Origin: an uncultured Verrucomicrobiae bacterium
GTDB lineage: Bacteria > Verrucomicrobiota > Verrucomicrobiia > Chthoniobacterales > Chthoniobacteraceae
Reading direction: 5' to 3'
NCBI GenBank assembly: GCA_963769025.1
Contig: CAVYKI010000003.1
Coordinates: 480,001 to 544,000 of the forward strand
DNA length: 64,000 nucleotides
Made by a program: the position numbers and the translations under genes. How positions within the stretch are numbered: position 1 is the stretch's first letter; every line of letters begins with the position of its first letter. The notes under the pieces were generated by a model. It was not told the origin of the DNA. It made no database searches and saw only the letters and a program-made list of their open reading frames with translations. Below are positions 2,157-41,098 of this stretch, one piece after another.

Positions 2157-4762
2157 TGAAACGGTTCGCCGCTGCCTCGCTTACGCTCGCAATCGGTGCC
2201 GCGCTCCAGGCCGTCGAGCCGGCGGCGTTTTTCGACGAACACTGCACGGACTGCCACGACGCGGAGACGAAGAAGGGCAATCTCGATCTCACGGCGCTGA
2301 AGCAGGACTTTGCGAATCCGGAGAACTTCGCCCGCTGGGTCAAGGTGCATGATCTCATCGTGTCCGGCGAGATGCCGCCGAAGAAGAAGGCGCGCCCGCC
2401 TGCGGACGATCGCAAGGCCATCACCGCATGGCTCAACGATTCGCTCACCAAGGCCGACCGGGCGCGCCTCGATGCGGAAAATCGCACGGGCGTGCGGAGG
2501 CTGACGCGCGGCGGAGTACGAGAACACGGTGCGCGATCTCTTCGACATGCCGGGGATCGCCTTGCAGAACGGCCTGCCTGCCGACGGCTCGGCGTACGGT
2601 TTCGACAAGAACAGCGACGCGCTCGACATCTCGCATGTGAACATGGCGAAGTACATCGAGGCCGCCGATCAGACGCTGGATCTCGCCATCGCGACGCGCC
2701 CGGACGCACCGGCGGTGCAGAAACGCCGGTTCTCGCTCATGAACCGCGGCGGCGGCGTCGCGCACATCGTGATGAATGGCGATGGGGTGCTGCTCAAGGA
2801 CAAGCAGCCCGATCCCGATTTTCCTCCTGCGGGCGAGCTGCCGCACATCGATCAGGGGTCGCACGAGCGCACGGGCGCCTTCGATACCGGCAGCAGCGTC
2901 GGACTTTTCCGGCACGAGGATGAGTCGGTGAGTCCGTACTTCATGGAGCACGTCACGATCTATCCCGGCCGCTACCGCGTGCGCACGTCGCTGTGGAGCT
3001 TCCAATGGGACAAGGGCAAGGTGCTCCCGGCGCGCGGCACGGAGGCGGCGCGGCTTTCCGTCGTGCAGCTCACCGGCGACGGCCGCGGCGGCCAGCACCC
3101 GAGCTACGTGCTCGGCTACTACGATGCGCCTTCGCTGGAATCCAAGGAGCACGAGCTCGTCACCTGGCTGAACCAGAACGAGATCATCGGCTACAACGTC
3201 GCGTCGCTCGCGCCCGTGGCGAACTACAACCGCAAGGGGCGCGCGATGGCGTTCACCGGGCCCGGGCATCGCCTGCGACTGGCTCGAGGTCGAGGGGCCG
3301 CTCCACGACATCTGGCCGCCGGCCGCGCATCGCGTGCTTTTCGGCGAACTGCCGCTCGCGCCAGTTCGTAGCCGCGGACAATCCCGGCGTTCGCGCGCCG
3401 GTGCGTCAGAAGGTCCGCCAGATCGGCGCAGGCAGAAACCGGCCCGATCCGGACAAGGGGCTGTGGACGGTCCAAAGCGGGAATCCGCTCGCCGACGCCG
3501 ACCGCCTGCTCGCGGGCTTCCTGCCGAAGGCGTTCCGCCGTCCCGTGGACGATGCCGTGCGCAAGAGCTACCTCGCGAAATTCGAGGAGCGCATGAAGGC
3601 CGGCGATCACTTCGAGACCGCGATGCGCTGGGTGTATCGCGCGGCGATGTGCTCGCCGGACTTCCTTTACCACATCGAACCCCCCGGCCGTCTCGACGAC
3701 TTCGCGCTCGCCTCACGCCTCTCGTATTTCCTCTGGAACTCGACGCCCGACGCCACGCTCACCGCGCTCGCGGCGGGCGGCAGACTCCGCGACCCAAAGG
3801 TGCTCGGCGAACAGGTCGAACGCCTGCTGAAGGACGCGAAGTCGCAGCGCTTCATCGAGGATTTCCTCGGCCAATGGCTGAAGCTGCGCTCCATCGCCGC
3901 GAACGATCCGGACAAGAAGCTCTACCCCGAGTTCAGCCCGTATCTGCAGGACTCCATGGTCGCCGAGACGCGCGCGTATTTCCGCGAACTCATCGACCGC
4001 AACCTCGACGCCGGACACCTCGTGCAGTCCGACTTTGCGATGCTGAATGAAAAGCTCGCGGTGCACTACGGCATCCCCGGCGTGAGCGGGCCGGCGATCC
4101 GGCGCGTGCAACTGCCGAAGGACTGCGCGCGCGGCGGATTCCTCACTCAGGCCTCGATTTTGAAAATCACCGCCAACGGCACGACGACATCGCCGGTGGT
4201 GCGCGGCGCGTTCGTGATGGACCGGCTGCTCGGCAAACCGCCCGAGCCGCAACCGCCGAACATCGCCGCCGTCGAGCCCGACGTGCAGGGGGCGACCACC
4301 ATCCGCGAGCTGCTCGCGAAGCACAGCACCGACGCCTCGTGCGCGTCGTGCCATGTGAACATCGACCCGCCCGGGTTTGCCCTCGAGTCGTTCGATGTCA
4401 TCGGCGGCCAGCGCGACCGCTACCGCAGCATCGGCGAAGGCGATCCCGCACCGCGCGGGAGCATCGACCCGTTCATCGGCATCAGCTTCAAGCTCGGGCC
4501 AAAGGTGGATGCGAGCGGCCAGTTGCACGACGAACGCAAGTTCACCGGCATCGCCGATTTCAAGACCCTGCTCACGACCGAGAACCGCCAGCTCCTGCTC
4601 AATCTCGCGCGCCAGTTCACCGTCTATGCCACGGGCCGCGACATCGCCTTCAGCGACCGCGCTGCGCTGGAGGACATCGTCGCGCGCACCGAAAAGCAGG
4701 GCGGCGGCATCCGCACGCTGCTGCACGAAGTCGCCCTGAGCGGCCTCTTCCAGACCCGCTAG
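2156..4762 (+). CDS. DUF1592/DUF1588 (PSD/PSCyt3-type) cytochrome c-containing protein; frameshifts near 2510, 3265 and 3360
   Basis: Signal peptide, CTDCH, GEMPP, RRLTR.EYENTVRDL, LASRLSYFLWNSTPD, TTTSPVVRG, CASCH..IDPPGFALESFD; pieces in ORFs 902..2923, 2529..3371, 2993..4762. Confidence 0.85.
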
Positions 4763-33488: not shown

Positions 33489-34309
33489 ATGAATCTTCCC
33501 GTCGTCCTCACCATCGCCGGCTCCGACAACAGCGCAGGCGCGGGCGCGCAGGCGGATCTCAAGACCATCAGCGCGCTCGGCGGATACGGCGTCACCGCCA
33601 TCACCTGCGTCGTCGCCGAGGTGCCGGGAAAAGTCAGCGCCGTGCATGCCATCCCGCCCGCGATTCGTCGCCGAGCAGATCCGCCTGCTCTTCGGTGCGT
33701 TCCCCATCGGTGCGATCAAGACCGGCATGCTCTACTCGACCGGAATCATCGACACCGTCGCCGACACGCTCGATCAGTTCCGCGCTCAGAATCCGGAGTC
33801 CAAAATCCCGCTCATCGTGGATCCCGTCATGGTCGCCACGAGCGGCGACCCGCTGCTGCTCCCCGATGCCGTCGCGCTCTACCGCGAGCGCCTCTTTCCC
33901 GCCGCAACCCTCGTCACGCCAAATCTCGACGAAGTCCGCACGCTCACCGGCCGCGACCATCACCAGCATCGCCGAAATGCGCGAAGCCGGCCTCGAACTC
34001 GCCGCACGTCACGGCACCGCATTCCTCGTCAAAGGCGGCCACCTGCGCGAAGCCGTCGCCACCGACCTCCTCGTACTGCCCGACGGCACCGTCCACACCT
34101 TCGAGGCCCCATTCGTCCCCGGCGTGAACACCCACGGCACCGGCTGCACCTACAGCGCCGCCATCGCCACCGGCCTCGCACGCGGACTCGACCTCCCCGC
34201 CGCAGTCGGCGAGGCGAAAAAGTTCGTCACCGCCGCCATTAAGAATTTTCTCCGCTGGGAGCGGGACGGCCGCACCACCGACGCGCTGCATCACTTTGCG
34301 AAAGGCTGA
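33489..34309 (+). CDS. thiD: Hydroxymethylpyrimidine/phosphomethylpyrimidine kinase; frameshifts near 33660 and 33950
   Basis: LTIAGSDNSAGAGAQADLKT, IKTGML, VDPVMVATSG, TPNLDE, VKGGH, NTHGTGCTYSAAI. Confidence 0.92.
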
Positions 34310-34322
34310 AAAGACTCCCCCC

Positions 34323-35828
34323 ATGAACCTCACCTGCACCACCGAATCCCTCCTCAAGCGTACCACCTCGCGCTGCCCCGTGTGCCATGCTTCGGTGCCC
34401 GCCGAGGTTTGGAAGGTGAGCGAGGGCTGTGGCGGGGATTCCGCCGCGCCGGCCGCGCGCGTCTTTCTCCGCCGCACCTGCCCCGAGCATGGAAAGGCCG
34501 AGGCGTGCATCGCGAGCGACGCGCGCTTCTACTGGCTCGCCCAGGGCGACCCGAAGAACCAGTGCTGTGGCGGCACCTGCCACGCCGCCGAGGGCGACGC
34601 CACCGGCACGCTCGGCCGCAACGCCTCCGCCTCTCAACCCTCAACCCTCAACTCTCAACCAGCCGCCGAGCGGCTCAGCACCTGCCTCGCGCTGATCGAG
34701 ATCGTGAATTCCTGCAACCTCGCCTGCCCCACGTGCTACGCGGATTCGCCCATGGGCGCCGGTGGCACTGTGGACGCCGTGCCGCTCGCCGACGTGCAGC
34801 GGCGCATCCAGGGCGTGATTGACCGCAAGGGCCGCATCGAAATCCTCCAGCTCTCCGGCGGCGAGCCGACGCTGCATCCGCAGTTCTTCGAACTGCTCGC
34901 GTGGCTGCACGCGCACCCCGGCATTGACTACGTGCTGCTGAACACCAACGGCGTCCGCATCGCGAACGACGACGCATTCCTCGACTCGCTCGGGAAGACA
35001 TTCCGCGCGGGAAAATTCCAGCTCTACCTGCAATTCGACGGCGTGCAGGAAGCCGCGCAGCGCGCCCTCCGCGGCGGCGATCTGCGCGAGATGCGCAAGC
35101 GCGCCATCGAGCGCTGCGGCACGCTGAACATCCCCATCACCCTCGCGATGACGGTGACGCCGGAAAACCTCCCGCACCTGTGGGACACGGTGGAGTTCGG
35201 CCTCGGCTTCGACCACGTGCGCGGCGTGAGCTTCCAGCCGATGTTCACCGAGCGGACGCGACTCCGAGCCTCTCAACTCGTCCAAGGCGCGCATCAACCG
35301 GCTCAACTCGATCTCAACACCGCCGACGTCATCCTCGCCCTCGTCGCCCAGTCCGCAGTCCCGCCTCCGCTTCGAGGACTTCACCCCGCTGCCCTGCGGC
35401 GATCCGAACTGCGCGACCATCGGCTACCTTTTGAAAATCGGCGGCACCGGCGGGCAGACGCGCTCGATCAGCGACTTCGTGGACTTCCGCCAGGTGCAGG
35501 ATTTCCTCCGCGACAAAGTCCGCTACACCCCCGAAGACCTCGCCCGCTGCGGCTGCGAAAGCGAACCCCTCGGCGAACTGCTGCACGAGCTGGAGACGGG
35601 AATGCGGAGTGCGGAACGCGGAGCGGGGATTGATGGCGCTGCCTCGGATTCCGCATTCCGCACTCCGCACTCCGCACTCGCCGCTCGGCCTTCCGCCTTT
35701 TCATCAAGCCCTTCATGGACGCGTGGACGTGGGACGAAGACCGCATCGACCGCTGCTGCACGCACGTCATCCGCCCGGATGGGAAGCTGGATTCGTTCTG
35801 CCGATACTACAGCACACAGCGCGGATGA
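34323..35828 (+). CDS. Radical SAM enzyme of the Tes/MJ0619 (tetraether lipid synthase-like) family; frameshifts near 35360 and 35690
   Basis: N-terminal TTSRCPVC...LRRTCPEHG; CNLACPTC; SGGEPTLHP; NTNG; YLQFDG; GVSFQP; PLPCGDPNC; C-terminal KPFMDAWTWDEDRIDRCCTHVIRPDGKLDSFCRYY, TGA at 35826-35828. Confidence 0.82.
34632..34659 (+). repeat. Four tandem heptamers (YCTCAAC) within the radical SAM gene
   Basis: TCTCAAC CCTCAAC CCTCAAC TCTCAAC; reverse complement of the run at 46279-46299. Confidence 0.8.
35599..35678. repeat. Inverted heptamer element (TCCGCAY family) within the radical SAM gene
   Basis: GGAATGC GGAGTGC GGAACGC ... TTCCGCA TTCCGCA CTCCGCA CTCCGCA. Confidence 0.8.
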
Positions 35829-35940
35829 AAAAGCTCAGGCCAACTCTACTCGGAGCGGCGCAACGACGCGTAGCGTCCGCCCCAATAATAGCCCTGAGCC
35901 CCGACCGCATGGGAAGCTGGATTCATTCTGCCGATACCAC
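35779..35940 (+). repeat. 32-bp direct repeat of the radical SAM 3' coding end (35779-35810 and 35909-35940)
   Basis: ATGGGAAGCTGGATTCGTTCTGCCGATACTAC vs ATGGGAAGCTGGATTCATTCTGCCGATACCAC, two mismatches, 130 bp apart. Confidence 0.9.
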
Positions 35941-35954
35941 TCGCGTCCAAGTTT

Positions 35955-36269
35955 ATGAAAGGGAAATTTCCGAACGTCAGATGGTTGACGCTCTTTTTTC
36001 TACCTGCGCTGATCGGCGTTCTCATTATGCTCTCAAGCCCAAAAGTCCGCGCTGCGACTATCTGTCTGTGGCTGCTTTTGTCGGCCTGCTACTTTTTCGT
36101 GTTGTTGCTTGTCTATTGCGTAAGGAACGAGCAACGCGGGATTGAACTCGCGGTCTATTCCGTTGTGGGGACTTTGTCTTTGTTGTCCGCGAACTTTTTC
36201 GTGTGCCTCACGCTCTACTACGCAGGCTGCGCGTGTGCGGCGTCGGGGATCGGCCGGATCGCTCCTTGA
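35955..36269 (+). CDS. Small 3-TM membrane protein, AT-richer than its neighbours, with C-terminal YAGC
   Basis: Three hydrophobic segments; ATGA overlap at the start and TTGA overlap with the next gene; visibly more T-rich sequence. Confidence 0.7.
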   Translation: MKGKFPNVRWLTLFFLPALIGVLIMLSSPKVRAATICLWLLLSACYFFVLLLVYCVRNEQRGIELAVYSVVGTLSLLSANFFVCLTLYYAGCACAASGIGRIAP

Positions 36270-36986
36270 AATCCTCCCCTTACAGCTGGCTGCTTCTCGT
36301 CGCCATCGCCGCGAGCCTTTTCACATGGACGCGGCTCGCGCGACGCGATCCCCGGCTGGTGATGATTTACGTCGCGGCGCTGCTCAGCGCGTTCATCGGG
36401 GCGAAGCTCGTCTATGTGCTCGCCGAGGGCTGGCTCGACTGGCCGCTGCCCGACCGCTGGCTCCGGCTCGCGACGGGCAAATCCGTGCTCGGCGCGCTGC
36501 TCGGCGGCTACGCCGGGGTGGAACTCGCGAAGCACGCGCTCGGCCACCGCGCCGCCACGGGCGATCTGTTCGCGCTGGTCGCGCCGCTCGGCATCGGGAT
36601 CGGCAGGATCGGCTGCCTGCTGCACGGCTGCTGCCTCGGCGAGCGCATGCGCGCCCGCGTGGTGGACGCTTCGCGATGCGCAGGGCGTCGCGCGCTGGCC
36701 CGCGGTGCCGTTGGAGCTGGCGTTCAACATCGCGGCCATCGTGATTTTCCTCCTCCTGCGCCGGCGCGGCTTGAAGGGAGTCCGCGACGGCCTGCGCGGC
36801 CAGCACTTCCACCTCTACCTCATCGCCTACGGCGCATTCCGTTTCGCGCACGAATGGATGCGCGCGACGCCGAAGATCGCCGGCGTGATCTCCGGCTACC
36901 AGCTAGCCGCGCTCGCGTGCGTGGCGCTCGGCGTGTGGGGATTCCGCCGACGCGCGCGGCTTGAGCGTGCAGCCGCCGCCCCGTAG
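36266..36986 (+). CDS. Prolipoprotein diacylglyceryl transferase (Lgt)-like protein, non-canonical; frameshift near 36645
   Basis: FIGAKLVYV, GKSVLGALLGG, GDLFA, IGRIGCLLHGCCLG, WPAVPLE, YGAFRFAHEWMR, SGYQ. Confidence 0.8.
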
Positions 36987-36997
36987 CGTCCGCGCGA

Positions 36998-37762
36998 ATG
37001 GAGCTCCGGAAATTCAACGTCCTCGGCGTCGCGATGAGCGCGATGAATCTCGACATCGCCACGCAGGCCGTGCTCGAGGCATGCGCGGCGCGGCGCAAGG
37101 GCTACGTGTGCGTGACGGGCGTCCACGGCATCACCGAGGCGCAGTCGGACGGTGCATTCCGCCGCATTTTGAACGGTGCATTCCTCAACACCTGCGACGG
37201 CATGCCGCTCGTGTGGGAGGGCCGGCGCGCGCATGGCGCGTGGGTGGATCGCGTGTATGGGCCCGACCTCATGCTCCGCATCATGGACGCGACGCGCGAC
37301 GGAAAGCTCACGCACTACTTCTACGGCGGCGCGCCCGGCGTGGCCAACCAGCTCAAGGCTGCGATGGAGCCGCGCTTCCCCGGCGTGCGAATCCTCGGCA
37401 CGCATTGCCCGCCCTTTCGTCCGCTCGATGAAACGGAGCGCGCCGCACTCGCCGCGGAGATCGCGGAGAAAAAACCCGACCTGTTCTGGGTCGGGCTCAG
37501 CACGCCGAAGCAGGAGCGCTTCATGGCCGAGTTCCTCCCGCTGCTGGACACGACGGTGATGCTCGGCGTCGGCGCGGCGTTCGACTTCCACACGGGCCGC
37601 ATGAAGGAGGCCCCGCGCTGGATGATGCGCTGCGGCCTGCAATGGCTCCACCGCCTGTGCAGCGATCCGAAGCGACTGTGGCGGCGCTACGGCATCATCG
37701 TGCCGAGCTACCTCTTCCGCATTTTCCTCCAGCGCACCGGGCTGAAAAAATACCCGCTCTGA
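36998..37762 (+). CDS. WecB/TagA/CpsF family glycosyltransferase
   Basis: CDGMPLVW, RVYGPDLM, WVGLSTPKQE, GVGAAFDF, GLQWLHRL..DPKRLWRRY. Confidence 0.92.
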   Translation: MELRKFNVLGVAMSAMNLDIATQAVLEACAARRKGYVCVTGVHGITEAQSDGAFRRILNGAFLNTCDGMPLVWEGRRAHGAWVDRVYGPDLMLRIMDATRDGKLTHYFYGGAPGVANQLKAAMEPRFPGVRILGTHCPPFRPLDETERAALAAEIAEKKPDLFWVGLSTPKQERFMAEFLPLLDTTVMLGVGAAFDFHTGRMKEAPRWMMRCGLQWLHRLCSDPKRLWRRYGIIVPSYLFRIFLQRTGLKKYPL

Positions 37763-37849: not shown

Positions 37850-38857
37850 ATGAACAAAGTCCTCGTTTGCGGCGCCGGCGGATTCATCGGCGGACACCTC
37901 GTGGCAGACCTCCGCCGCCAGGGCGTGAAGCACATCCGCGCCGTGGACCACAAGCCGGTCGGGCAGTGGTATCAGCGCTTCGACGACGTGGAAAATCTCC
38001 GGCTCGACCTGCAGGAAAAGGACGCCTGCGAGACGGCGGTGAAAGGCTGCGACTGGGTCTACAACCTCGCCGCGGACATGGGCGGAATGGGCTTCATCGA
38101 GCTGAACAAGGGCCTGTGCATGCTGAGCGTGCTCATCAACACGCACCTGCTCATGGCTGCGCGCAAGTGCGGCGGCGTCGAGCGGTTTTTCTACGCGTCG
38201 AGCGCGTGCGTTTATAACGCGGCGAAGCAGACCAACCCGAACATTACCGCGCTCGCCGAAGAGGACGCTTACCCGGCGATGCCCGAGGACGGCTACGGCT
38301 GGGAGAAGCTTTTCAGCGAGCGCATGTGCCGCCACTTTCGCGAGGACTTCGGCATCCAGACGCGCATCGCCCGCTACCACAATGTCTATGGCCCGAACGG
38401 CACCTACGACGGCGGACGCGAGAAGGCGCCCGCCGCAGTCTGCCGCAAGGTGATCGCCGCGAAGCTGGACGGGAAACACGAAATCGAAATCTGGGGCGAC
38501 GGGCAGCAGACGCGCTCGTTCATGTACATCGACGACTGCCTGCACGGCACGCAGATGCTCACGCGCTCGGATTTCATCGAGCCGATCAACATCGGCAGCT
38601 CGGAGAAAGTGAGCATCAACCAGCTCGTGGATCTCGTGGAGGAAATCGCGGGGATCAAACTTGAGCGCCGCTACAAGCTCGACGCGCCGAAGGGCGTCAA
38701 CGGACGGAACTCCGACAACACGCTGATCCAAAAAACATTCGGCTGGCAGCCGAACATCCGGCTGCGCGACGGCCTCGCAAAGACCTACGCATGGATCCAC
38801 GACGAGATGGTCTCCACGCGAAAGACCGGCCGCGCGAGCGTGGTGAACGTCGCGTAG
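37850..38857 (+). CDS. NAD-dependent epimerase, GDP-mannose 3,5-epimerase-like
   Basis: GAGGFIG, NLAADMGGMGFI, YASSACVY, PEDGYGWEKL, GGREKAPAAVCRK, GVNGRNSDN. Confidence 0.9.
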   Translation: MNKVLVCGAGGFIGGHLVADLRRQGVKHIRAVDHKPVGQWYQRFDDVENLRLDLQEKDACETAVKGCDWVYNLAADMGGMGFIELNKGLCMLSVLINTHLLMAARKCGGVERFFYASSACVYNAAKQTNPNITALAEEDAYPAMPEDGYGWEKLFSERMCRHFREDFGIQTRIARYHNVYGPNGTYDGGREKAPAAVCRKVIAAKLDGKHEIEIWGDGQQTRSFMYIDDCLHGTQMLTRSDFIEPINIGSSEKVSINQLVDLVEEIAGIKLERRYKLDAPKGVNGRNSDNTLIQKTFGWQPNIRLRDGLAKTYAWIHDEMVSTRKTGRASVVNVA

Positions 38858-38869
38858 CCGGCGACGGGA

Positions 38870-40244
38870 TCAGCGGACGAATTTTCCGGGATTCAGAATC
38901 CCCTTCGGGTCGAGCGCGGCCTTGAGCGCGGAGTGCGCGTCGCGACCGACCTTGTCCACGGCCTGCGACCACCATGGCTTCTTCGCGAGGCCGATGCCGT
39001 GCTCGCCGGTGATGACGCCGCCGATCTTCAGGATCCATGTGAAAAGCTCGTCGAGCGCGCGGTCCACCTTCGCCTTTACGCGGCGATCCCCGTGGTAGTT
39101 CGCGGCCATGATGTTCACGTGGATGTTTCCGTCGCCCGCGTGGCCGAAGCACGCGACCGGATAGCCGTATTTCTTCGCGAGGTGTTCGCCGAACTCGGCC
39201 AGCTCCACGAGCTTCCCGCGCGGGACGACGACATCCTCGTTGAGCTTCGTGAGCCCGGTTGCTTTGAGCGACGCGCTGTACGCGCGGCGCAGGCCCCAGA
39301 GCTTTTCGCATTCCTCCTCTCCGAATGCCGTGAGCACGCGGATCGTGTTGAGCTTGCGGAGCAGTTTCGCGAGCGCGGCGCACTCGCCTTTCACCGACTC
39401 CGCCTGGCCGTCGAGTTCGACCAGCACGAGCGACCTGCGCGCCGGGAGCGATCTCGCGGCCGAGAAATTCGCGCGCACTTTTCAACGTGAACGGGTCGGC
39501 GATCTCCATGGCGCACGGCAGGAAGCCCGCGGCGAAAATCCGCTGCACGGCATCCGCCGCCTCGCGGAAACTGCGGAAGCTCACGGCCAGCGTGGCGCGC
39601 GCGGGAGGATGCGGCAGCAGGCGCAGCGTCGCCTCCGTCACCACGCCGAGCAGCCCTTCGCTGCCGACGAACAGGCCCGCGAGATCGAAGCCCTGCTTGT
39701 TCTTGTGCGTGCGCCCGCCGCAGCGCAGCACGCGGCCGTCGGCGAGGACGACCTCGAGGCCGAGCACATAGTTGCGCGTCACGCCGTATTTCAGGCAGCG
39801 CGGCCCGCCGGCGTTCGTGGCGATATTGCCGCCGATGCTGCATTCCTTCAGCGACGCGGGATCGGGTGGATAGAAGAGCCCGACCTTGCGCACCTCCGCC
39901 TGAAGGTGGCCGGTGATCACGCCCGGCTGCACCACGGCGACGCCGTCGGAAAAATGGATCTCCTTGATGCGATTCATGCGCGCCACGCTCAGCGCGATGC
40001 CGCCGCGCACGGGCACGCAGCCGCCGACGTAGCCCACGCCGGAGCCGCGCGGCGTCACCGGGATGCCGTGGCGATTCGCGAAGCGCAGGGTTTTTTCCAC
40101 GTGCGCGCGCGTGCGCGCCAGCACCACGACGTCCGGATCCCGCGAGGCAAACCAGCGGTCAGCCGCATGCGCGGTGATCGTGGGCTTGTCGGTGAAGACA
40201 ACCCCGGGTCCCAGAATCCGAGCGAGCGAGGCTGCGGTGTTCAC
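38870..40244 (-). CDS. FAD-linked oxidase, GlcD/D-lactate dehydrogenase-like; frameshift near 39440
   Basis: YPPDPAS, IGGNIATNAGG, KYGVTR, GSEGLLG, FGHAGDGNIH, ITGEHGIG, DPKGILNPGK. Confidence 0.88.
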
Positions 40245-40378
40245 CGGGCGAAGGTGGTCACGGCCGTCGGCGAAGTTCCGCACGATGCCGATGAAATCGA
40301 CGGAAAACAGGAAACGCATGATGGACTTCTGATAACGCCGGCGATCAGCCGACGCAAGCTGCGGTCCGGTTGCGCCCG

Positions 40379-41098
40379 TCACCGCGGCGGGTTCGATGGC
40401 TTCAGCTCCTCCCCACCAAAGATGCGCCTGAGCACGTTTGGCTTGGGAGTTGGCGTCGGACGCGCCGCGCGACCGGCTGCGGGCTGGGAACGCCCGGCCG
40501 CAGGCGTACGGCCTGCAGCAGCAGTCCGGGACGAGGCGACGGATGCCGGCATTACCGAACTCAGGAATTCCGCCGAAGGCTCCTTTTCAAAGCCGTCGTG
40601 CGCCAGAATCTCGCCCTTGAGCGCGTGAATCGTCACGACGCCCAACTGGTCGCCAATGGGGTCCAGCACCGTCGCCCGCCAGACGGGAACATTCGCAGCC
40701 AGATCCTTCGCCATCTCGAAATTGAGTGACCCGACCTTGGCGCCGTTCGCCGCGGCAAAAAGCGCCGCGACTCGCGCGACGACGTCGGAATCGATCTTCA
40801 CCGCATCATTTCCCACGACATCAGCCGCGCTCACGGACTCGGCGAATTGCGACAGCTCGCGCGAAGCCACGACTCTGCCCCCGGCAACGACAAACTCACG
40901 CATCCCGTCCGCCAACACGGGATCATGCACGATGAAATACCACCGCTCCGGAGTGGCCACGGCGTCCCGGCCCTCGATACGGGCCAGCCGCTTCGCGGCG
41001 CCCTGGGGGATCAATTTGAGCGCACCGAGCGCAGTGCCATCGCCCTGGGCGCTGGCGACGGAAACAAATGCGAGAAAGAGAAAGCCACGGAAATTCAC
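40379..41098 (-). CDS. Secreted hypothetical protein
   Basis: GTG start with signal peptide FRGFLFLAFVSVASAQ in the C-terminal part of ORF 40379..42874; low-complexity tail. Confidence 0.65.
   Translation of the reverse strand: MNFRGFLFLAFVSVASAQGDGTALGALKLIPQGAAKRLARIEGRDAVATPERWYFIVHDPVLADGMREFVVAGGRVVASRELSQFAESVSAADVVGNDAVKIDSDVVARVAALFAAANGAKVGSLNFEMAKDLAANVPVWRATVLDPIGDQLGVVTIHALKGEILAHDGFEKEPSAEFLSSVMPASVASSRTAAAGRTPAAGRSQPAAGRAARPTPTPKPNVLRRIFGGEELKPSNPPR

Follow-up and report, generated by a model that had tools for sequence, protein, structure and literature searches.

The stretch of DNA analyzed here, called the window below, comprises 64,000 nucleotides (nt) of contig CAVYKI010000003.1 (positions 480,001 to 544,000, forward strand; assembly GCA_963769025.1) from an uncultured Verrucomicrobiae bacterium of the Chthoniobacteraceae, and it raises the question of why the 3′ end of one of its genes is present twice. 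The gene encodes a radical S-adenosylmethionine (rSAM) enzyme and is followed by a small membrane-protein gene and by a gene resembling that for the lipoprotein-modifying enzyme Lgt (Table 1). A repeat search identified a direct repeat of 40 nt (35771-35810 and 35901-35940; 36 of 40 positions identical, or 90%; spacing 130 nt), which represents a second copy of the 3′ end of the Tes/TrsS-like rSAM gene. We consider it likely that these duplicated 40 nt are the scar of inter-allelic recombination at a cassette slot between the two enzyme genes, and that the small gene held in the slot most likely encodes the enzymes' substrate.

A sequence-only reading of this locus had described a repeat of 32 bp with an ATGA stop/start overlap at each copy. 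The duplicated tail and both overlaps were confirmed by the repeat search, by shuffled controls and by inspection of the open reading frames (ORFs), with the length corrected to 40 nt. A 29-nt pattern taken from the repeat had 2 matches in the 64-kb window, while none of 100 shuffles gave any match, and at both copies the ATGA overlap comes 15 nt after the repeat. Copy 1 forms the genuine end of the rSAM ORF, which closes with ...GKLDSFCRYYSTQRG (..RPDGKLDSFCRYYSTQRG) and whose stop overlaps the start of a frame reading MKKLRPTLLGA. Copy 2 reads ...PHGKLDSFCRYHSRPSL (..RPHGKLDSFCRYHSRPSL) up to its own stop, which overlaps the ATG of the 104-amino-acid (aa) ORF at 35955-36269. Copy 2 does not belong to an intact gene; it is an orphan with no rSAM body attached. 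The two copies differ at four positions, two of them synonymous and two of them replacements (D to H and Y to H), and both residues replaced in copy 2 are invariant among the rSAM tails examined.

Part of the sequence between the copies (35865-35893) is identical at 26 of 29 positions to 628-656 of L050, where it forms the left end of a 233-nt palindromic spacer (L and G numbers are our handles for loci and genomes). The 54 nt directly behind copy 1 (35811-35864, reading MKKLRPTLLGA...) showed no significant similarity to any small gene or flank when local alignments were compared with shuffles; scores against three targets were reached by 179 to 263 of 500 shuffles, and that for a shared ATGAAAAAG start by 21 of 500. 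The sequences compared were the first small gene and Lgt head of L050, the Lgt head and Lgt 3′ end of the window, and the small gene of L014. Derivation of the spacer from the Lgt 3′ end or head was dropped as a candidate, as its local alignment scores were not above those of shuffles.

Homology to relatives breaks at this same point. A DNA search found the enzyme genes in several species of the genus, and in none of the 41 relatives searched did a match cover query positions 1516-1970, corresponding to 35811-36265 of the window. In seven fetched loci, homology ends after the RYY codons of the rSAM gene and returns at the start of the Lgt-like gene, with 250-1300 nt of unrelated, lower-G+C DNA in the interval. 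In steps of 60 nt, most of the rSAM and Lgt-like genes of the window match those of G042 (L022) and L087 at an identity of 0.9-1.0, which dips at inserts resembling repetitive extragenic palindromic (REP) elements; across 35800-36279 the identity is 0.17-0.52. Around tail copy 1 (35740-35799) it is 0.97-0.98 and then falls to random. Environmental contigs likewise match up to 35810 and then continue with at least three different sequences, and one contig joins 35810 to 36281 via 701 other letters. The slot is bounded on the left right after RYY (35810) and on the right within the first three to four codons of the Lgt-like gene (~36278), such that the last residues of the rSAM protein (its variable last 2-20 codons) and the Lgt start codon change with the insert.

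The same arrangement extends well beyond the window. In an order-wide protein search, the rSAM was found in 34 of 401 genomes (a tally that includes G183), and an Lgt-like gene lies downstream on the same strand in 30 of the 31 loci that were fetched (a contig end cuts one of them; over the next 3.7 kb, L027 has none). In L040 (G392:C2, reverse strand), only the last 57 Lgt-like residues (query 178-234) remain behind the rSAM stop, possibly reflecting an internal deletion. Additional loci came from a metagenome scan for the tail motif (45 loci, on contigs that carry no taxonomy) and from a scan of GTDB species with the Lgt-like alignment, from which the best 80 of 357 stretches were kept; the titles of the latter are mostly Verrucomicrobiota (many of them Chthoniobacteraceae or Chthoniobacterales), with a few mislabelled or unclassified, and several of the counts that follow rest on ORFs chosen by simple rules. 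Across 116 loci with both flanks, the enzyme genes abut in 42 (gap <170 nt) and enclose an insert in 74 (gap ≥170 nt), and the 74 inserts fall into 56 DNA clusters. Among pairs of loci whose Lgt genes are ≥90% identical over ≥250 of their first 300 nt, 35 of 48 showed no insert similarity at E ≤1e-3; these pairs are kin rather than independent. The window belongs to such a set: its nearest relatives are G042 (L022/L098) and contigs L059, L075, L089, L082, L087 and L057/L067, and the Lgt heads of the window, L082, L087, L057/L067 and L059/L075/L089/L098 are 94-99% identical, with five different, unrelated inserts behind the rSAM gene. Judging by contigs L082, L087, L057 and L059 and by genome G042, strains of this species group occur together in metagenomes from freshwater and sediment. 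The sequence-only reading had taken the middle gene for a variable module and proposed comparing the rSAM-Lgt interval in close relatives; the comparison bore this out, with a break against every relative from 35810 to ~36270 and differing middle genes in place of a uniform one.

Most inserts consist of one or two genes on the + strand for membrane proteins of 88-136 aa, some of ~285 aa, coupled by overlapping stop and start codons. The last helix of these proteins typically carries ..LLxN, then eight to nine residues, then A or G followed by C, and ends 3-15 residues later. Collectively, these data mark the interval between the rSAM gene and the Lgt-like gene of this soil/freshwater Verrucomicrobium as a hot spot of recombination, at which a small gene is swapped. 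What is new here is that the small gene between the enzymes occupies a slot exchanged among near-identical strains, together with its foreign-like composition and the orphan tails and heads described below.

The small protein of the window has no Pfam or NCBIfam match. Two metagenome homologues, 64% and 59% identical to it, conserve W10, LFFLPALI, N80 and YYAGCACAASGI. When the window protein was compared by hhalign with a family of Cys-tailed small membrane proteins found at the other loci, the match had a probability of 92.6% and an E value of 4.6e-7 over 91 columns, and it aligned both the W..LFFLP and the N...AGC motifs, with four extra residues between N and C in the window protein. Judging from this comparison, the window small protein is a divergent "B-type" member of the family. 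Family members are ~100 aa long, with hydrophobic helices, an N-terminal W-x-W-L-L-L..P, and a last helix bearing N and then A or G followed by C and a short tail; the window protein has a basic N terminus and three hydrophobic stretches, with a charged loop (RNEQRG) preceding the last helix and A-G-C following, its membrane topology being judged by eye. The cysteine is invariant in all 15 aligned family sequences, in a lipobox-like setting behind a hydrophobic helix and a small residue. A cysteine preceded by G, A or S is present among the final 22 residues in 26 of 33 distinct middle proteins, versus 20% of 11209 control ORFs (80-140 aa, own genome).

A hidden Markov model (HMM) built from seven of these proteins also matches ORFs directly upstream of the rSAM gene in most loci, and G014 and G004 each have a tandem of three family genes, of which the last overlaps the start of the rSAM gene. 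In most loci, translational coupling links the family genes to those of the enzymes; in the window, the coupling takes the form of a TTGA overlap with the Lgt-like start and an ATGA overlap with the orphan tail, not with the intact rSAM gene. The upstream family genes and the invariant cysteine together mark the small protein as a third component of the module, placed before the rSAM gene or between the enzymes. The window has no family gene upstream of the rSAM gene because thiD abuts it there. The B-type gene itself is rare, being present in 2 of 151 genomes of the bacterial family (the window's own and G434, from another genus) and in none of the other 29 genomes of the genus. In G434 it lies behind an intact rSAM gene with no duplication; that contig is 2.5 kb long and from a bin with 6% contamination, which makes its taxonomic assignment weak. 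An orphan family gene (C10:477790-478098; L049 4291-4599; E value 3e-15, third-position G+C 0.845) sits elsewhere in the window's own genome, at a distance from the enzyme pair and surrounded by DUF1501, DUF1565 and BamB-like genes. The module is also carried by the type strain Chthoniobacter flavus Ellin428 (NZ_ABVL01000005.1; L127, which is identical to L024 over 5284 nt), where two middle genes encode proteins of 101 aa and 287 aa that each end in the GC motif and additional family genes lie upstream.

The composition of the middle genes sets them apart from their flanks. In the window, G+C falls from ~0.68 to 0.50 over 35925-36225, and third-position G+C (GC3) of the small ORF is 0.676 versus 0.87-0.91 in the flanking genes; a comparison of composition with the flanks had been proposed in the earlier reading. 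Across loci, GC3 is 0.50-0.69 in middle genes versus 0.85-0.92 in the flanking enzymes; only neighboring genes served as the reference, the genome-wide baseline having included spurious ORFs. We rejected the notion that low G+C merely reflects a membrane protein's amino acids, since third positions are low too (0.50-0.69) and since GC3 is host-like (0.82-0.85) in the C10 orphan and in two of the three upstream family genes of G014, the third (L013_up3) being at 0.69. The middle genes are foreign-like in composition.

If alleles of the slot recombine, other loci might carry scars as well. Conserved tail and head peptides were searched against 77 + 80 sequences, amounting to at most 141 distinct loci (16 are present twice). 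Most slots are clean, and about 5 of about 141 contain extra partial copies: the window, L050 and L168 repeat the rSAM tail, while L017 (= L102), L085 and L050 repeat the Lgt head. The tail measures 13 codons in the window and 31 codons in L168, and L050 has a second tail as well as an Lgt head of 46 codons. In L085, an Lgt head of 23 residues lies between two small genes; in L017 (= L102, from G009), one of 19 residues is followed by a toxin-antitoxin-like pair. These two ORFs of L017 (G009:C174, reverse strand; oriented 3298-3920), antitoxin-like and ParE/RelE-like as named by eye, precede the real Lgt-like gene.

L050, a metagenome contig of 1109 nt, shares the very junction found in the window. 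It contains tail 1, a small family gene without the Cys, the Lgt head, the palindromic spacer, tail 2 and an ATGA-coupled B-type homologue, in that order. Given the match at 26 of 29 spacer positions, the block of spacer piece, tail copy and B-type gene occurs in two independent assemblies behind different upstream sequence; this agrees with the earlier suggestion that copy 2 of the tail moves together with its kind of small gene. L168 has tail 1, a frameshifted small gene (G+C 0.44), tail 2, an intact small gene (G+C 0.66) and Lgt. Its two tails differ by seven synonymous changes and one replacement in 28 codons, and those of L050 by two synonymous changes and no replacement in 18 codons. That the copies differ mostly at synonymous sites in both loci points to two once-functional alleles rather than to duplication in situ followed by decay.

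How might two tails have come to stand one behind the other? The enzyme genes of Chthoniobacterales abut or enclose one or two small genes, and close strains carry unrelated DNA there. In our proposal, two slot alleles would have been joined in the window's lineage by an exchange with homology in one conserved flank and an illegitimate junction at the other end. The outcome would be a second rSAM 3′ end, still ATGA-coupled to its small gene, 130 nt behind the functional one. With Lgt as the anchor, tail 2 and the B-type gene would be incoming; with the rSAM gene as the anchor, it would be tail 1 and the start of another small gene. We infer from this layout a mechanism of homology-facilitated illegitimate recombination, a process reportedly studied by de Vries and Wackernagel in 2002, Prudhomme et al. 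in 2002 and Meier and Wackernagel in 2003; these Chthoniobacterales are not known to be competent or to take up DNA. As to direction, tail 2 is only 90% identical to tail 1, whose rSAM is 97-98% identical to its nearest relatives, which mildly favors tail 2 being foreign or older. In L168, composition suggests that the rSAM-proximal gene is the newcomer.

Within NCBIfam, the window rSAM scores best with TrsS, at 162 bits where the cut-off is 490, and with Tes, at 112.5 bits where it is 450, and the intact orthologue of G014 reaches 205.1 and 143.2 bits against the same cut-offs. Its zinc ribbon (PF23545) and radical SAM core (PF04055) are the architecture also of Tes/GDGT-MAS (NF045702; Zeng et al. 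2022, PMC8941075) and of TrsS (NF045646), where the zinc ribbon is likewise N-terminal; unlike these, the window-type rSAM falls far below the equivalog cut-offs and is always paired with an Lgt-like gene. Compared with Lgt proper (Escherichia coli; PDB 5AZB/5AZC; PF01790, TIGR00544), the Lgt-like protein of G014 passes the Pfam LGT cut-off over its full length (89.9 bits), falls below those of the NCBIfam Lgt equivalogs (41.9 vs 118.9; 54.1 vs 334) and lacks the N/E motif; a housekeeping Lgt is encoded on another contig (C9, 207.6 bits). In alignment with 5AZB, all 19 Lgt-like sequences have G-R-V-G-C-L-L-H-G-C-C-L-G where Lgt has G-R-x-G-N-x-x-N-G-E-x-x-G, so that R and the last G are retained, with C, H and C in place of N, N and E (N146 to C and E151 to C among the changes). 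Equivalents of Y26, R143, G154, R239 and E243 are retained. The residue numbers and roles are those we take to hold for E. coli Lgt, the 5AZB chain being offset by one. The invariant Cys-rich G-R-x-G-C-x-x-x-G-C-C-x-G (positions 115-127 in G014) might bind metal or form a thioester or disulfide relay.

The small protein is laid out, by eye, as a lipoprotein signal peptide placed at the C terminus. The reading that we find most likely, though somewhat short of an even chance, is that the Lgt-like enzyme would transfer diacylglyceryl to the terminal cysteine and that the Tes-like enzyme would then act on the lipid tails; the altered catalytic motif may leave room for other chemistry. The third component turns over between near-identical strains with the Cys-bearing helix fixed, which locates the constraint and points to the small protein as the thing acted upon. 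As the cultured Chthoniobacter flavus Ellin428 carries the module, the idea is testable at the bench. A complex prediction for the Lgt-like protein and middle small protein of G014 returned no answer (score 0.00 in two runs) and counts neither way.

Could the repeat have arisen without any exchange between alleles? A segment of 130 nt, comprising the rSAM tail and the start of the small gene, might have been copied in situ by slippage and then diverged, consistent with the shared layout of the two copies (repeat, five codons, stop overlapping an ATG 15 nt on) and with the MK that begins the ORF after each. We regard such a tandem duplication as very unlikely, since the repeat is 90% identical while the sequence directly behind it is unalignable, since the tails of L168 and L050 differ almost only synonymously, as for two functional alleles, and since L050 has the B-type gene and its tail copy again, there after a different first gene. 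Mis-joining of reads from two strains is a natural concern in a metagenome-assembled genome of 13 contigs and 83% completeness, in which single-base frame breaks in thiD, rSAM and Lgt betray poor base-level quality. Among contigs from four metagenome runs, none spans both copies and 35911-36192 is uncovered; these are assembled contigs of related strains, no run contained half of the sampled words (best share 0.28), and the gap says nothing about the source. One run does have low-depth contigs on 35817-35910, behind copy 1. The copies moreover differ at 4 of 40 positions with unique sequence between them, a two-strain chimera would need two joins within 130 nt, and similar scars occur in three independent assemblies (L050, L168 and L085), the junction itself in L050; an artefact is therefore very improbable. 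A dedicated recombinase inserting small genes at the rSAM 3′ end, with the repeat as an att duplication, would explain why insertion always occurs at the same two boundaries, why the target gene's 3′ end is directly repeated, as with islands that integrate into gene ends, and why L024, L083 and L085 carry two-gene arrays. However, the slot has no recombinase gene next to it in the window (thiD is upstream and a WecG-type transferase downstream) or in the loci read, the lengths and end points of the scars vary (tails of 13, ~20 and 31 codons; Lgt heads of 19 to 46 codons), the boundaries coincide with the ends of coding conservation, and nine junctions yielded no shared inverted repeat at the insert ends in a motif search that was not exhaustive. 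A site-specific cassette system is highly improbable on these grounds, and integrons, with their integrase and attC-like repeats, find no counterpart in the same ORFs and junctions.

A further alternative accepts the exchange and denies that the small proteins are substrates: they could be accessory subunits, regulators or passengers, with the Cys used otherwise, for example to hold a metal together with the GCxxHGCC of the Lgt-like enzyme. In its favor, that enzyme has lost the two canonical motif residues noted above, 7 of the 33 middle proteins lack the terminal Cys motif (L019, L022 = L059, L026, L068, L070, L083_m1 and L087), and unrelated genes also occupy the slot, namely reverse-strand secreted proteins (L016/L056, L018 and L071), toxin-antitoxin-like pairs (L017 and L057/L067) and a GIY-YIG protein (L039). 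Set against this are the invariance of the Cys in its lipobox-like context, the translational coupling of family genes to the enzymes, and the retained equivalents of R143, Y26, R239 and E243. We judge this alternative unlikely, although it is the one that we take most seriously, and we prefer the reading of the small protein as a substrate exchanged between alleles.

Several points weigh against that preferred reading in addition to the uncovered interval, the missing Cys motifs and the unrelated inserts. The Lgt-anchored and rSAM-anchored scenarios predict the same map, so structure does not tell direction, and the 54 nt after copy 1 match nothing, so displacement of a resident gene is not demonstrated. 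The sequence-only reading had copy 2 and its small gene coming in and displacing the resident; of this, a variable module in which copy 2 goes with its small gene is supported, and the direction and the displacement are conjectural. The two replacements at invariant residues imply that copy 2 has decayed or contains assembly errors, and the donor allele is not recognizable. The rSAM and Lgt-like genes are frameshifted as assembled, and the module may accordingly be dead in this genome. The window protein has the architecture of the Cys-tailed family by hhalign and the coupling beside the enzyme pair, but the family HMM misses it (E 0.05, 5.3 bits) and the first HMM of seven sequences gave no match at E ≤1; only profile-profile comparison detects it, and membrane proteins inflate such scores. 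Finally, the lipidation reading is a prediction from sequence.

The features of the locus are collected in Table 1.

Table 1. Features of the rSAM-Lgt locus, in positions of the window
Feature	Coordinates	Strand	Evidence
thiD	33489..34309	+	
Radical SAM gene, Tes/TrsS-like clade	34323..35828	+	Pfam Radical_SAM 68.7 bits; Zn_ribbon_HMPTM 49.8 bits
Tail copy 1, functional rSAM 3′ end (..RPDGKLDSFCRYY)	35771..35810	+	Repeat; homology to all relatives ending at 35810
Slot-specific last rSAM codons STQRG plus stop	35811..35828	+	Codons differ with each insert type (tails and junctions compared)
Spacer between copies, ATGA-coupled start MKKLRPTLLGA...	35825..35900	+	35865-35893 matches L050 spacer
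Tail copy 2, orphan rSAM 3′ end (..RPHGKLDSFCRYHSRPSL and stop), not joined to an rSAM body	35901..35958	+	Repeat; tblastn with G014 tail, E 5e-4
Small membrane-protein gene, 104 aa, ends ..SANFFVCLTLYYAGCACAASGIGRIAP	35955..36269	+	Three hydrophobic stretches; hhalign to family
Lgt-like gene (prolipoprotein diacylglyceryl transferase paralogue)	36265..36986	+	Pfam LGT 50.5 + 34.2 bits, two halves
WecG-type glycosyltransferase gene	36998..37762	+	

The likely start of the Lgt-like gene is a TTG that overlaps the stop of the small gene. As assembled, the rSAM gene goes out of frame by +1 near 35356 and returns near 35690, the Lgt-like gene shifts by +1 near 36647, and thiD is split over three frames. 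Contigs of related strains have one base fewer at 35356/7 in four metagenome runs and at 36647 in three of four. Given the split of thiD and an assembly of 13 contigs and 83% completeness, we consider indel errors likelier than decay, and the frame breaks are probably such errors, with pseudogenes as the alternative. An FAD-linked oxidase-like ORF pair at 38697-40382 is also split between frames. Within the rSAM coding region, a run of REP-like repeats of the CTCAACC type occupies 34625-34660, with copies scattered through genomes of the genus, as seen in the many short matches to query 330-365 in the DNA search of relatives, and a second REP-like element at 35593-35686 forms a G+C-rich hairpin whose 24-nt arms are 92% complementary. 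Some environmental relatives lack this hairpin, their contigs skipping 89-100 nt between ~35587-35601 and 35688-35691, and relatives have other in-frame low-complexity inserts at the same rSAM loops.

The organization of the slot resembles that of the orphan modules of Rhs loci, contact-dependent growth inhibition (CDI) loci and type VI secretion system (T6SS) loci. For T6SS effector-immunity arrays and Rhs C-terminal displacement, Kirchberger et al. (2017, Sci Rep 7:45133; PMC5361080) propose homology-facilitated illegitimate recombination, with clean homologous replacement being commoner. They also describe a conserved upstream gene as the homologous anchor, exchange of a variable 3′ end with a small coupled gene, and older modules that persist as orphans after a short stretch of the conserved gene. 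Our locus has its counterpart of each: in all relatives the variable region opens at one and the same place in the 3′ end of a conserved gene, behind the RYY codons; an orphan piece with its variable end and coupled small gene lies downstream of the anchor gene in the window (35901-36269), L050 and L168; and different modules sit on close backgrounds, as seen in the 35 of 48 pairs and in the B-type gene's presence in 2 of 151 genomes. Unlike those systems, the slot here has an Lgt-like downstream anchor and arrays of one or two genes, and there is no toxin domain with an immunity protein, the rSAM end being 2-20 residues long and the small proteins having no toxin or immunity family match. We know of no antagonistic function for this slot.

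Homology-facilitated illegitimate recombination in transformable bacteria, as outlined in PMC5361080 and PMC3240628, likewise combines one homologous with one illegitimate end and leaves insertions whose illegitimate junction shows partial duplications or deletions, as in the window, L050, L168, L085 and L017. Clusters for ribosomally synthesized and post-translationally modified peptides (RiPPs) with hypervariable precursors offer another likeness, in that small coupled genes lie beside an rSAM gene, with several paralogues per locus and one short conserved motif for recognition or modification, the sequence around it being free to vary. Unlike RiPP precursors, the small proteins here are polytopic membrane proteins of ~100 aa with the motif at the C terminus, no protease or exporter gene is in the locus, and lipid chemistry is suspected. 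The sequence-only reading had likened the middle gene to precursor or immunity cassettes; the precursor half of that comparison fits better and the immunity half less well, and the middle gene belongs to the module's own Cys-tailed family rather than being an arbitrary cassette.

Literature searches linking Tes with Lgt, or an Lgt paralogue with a radical SAM enzyme, found no linking paper, and a search for TrsS found only a table entry in a selenoprotein review. To our knowledge, no function has been described for the enzyme pair, which joins an extra Lgt with a bacterial relative of the archaeal tetraether synthase. We offer, as an unlikely and frankly speculative reading, that the locus may be one of polymorphic substrates, in which Chthoniobacterales strains would trade precursor genes whose products would be lipidated on the terminal Cys by the Lgt-like enzyme and modified on their lipid tails by the Tes-like enzyme; cleavage might then release lipopeptides particular to each strain, made of the 3-15 residues that follow the Cys. 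If true, the turnover of the slot would reflect diversifying selection on a surface or signaling molecule, and the locus would be the lipid-based equivalent of cassettes for polymorphic toxin/immunity pairs or RiPP precursors. The finding extends the pattern known from toxin loci, in which a conserved anchor and a swappable 3′ module leave an orphan behind, to a biosynthetic operon.

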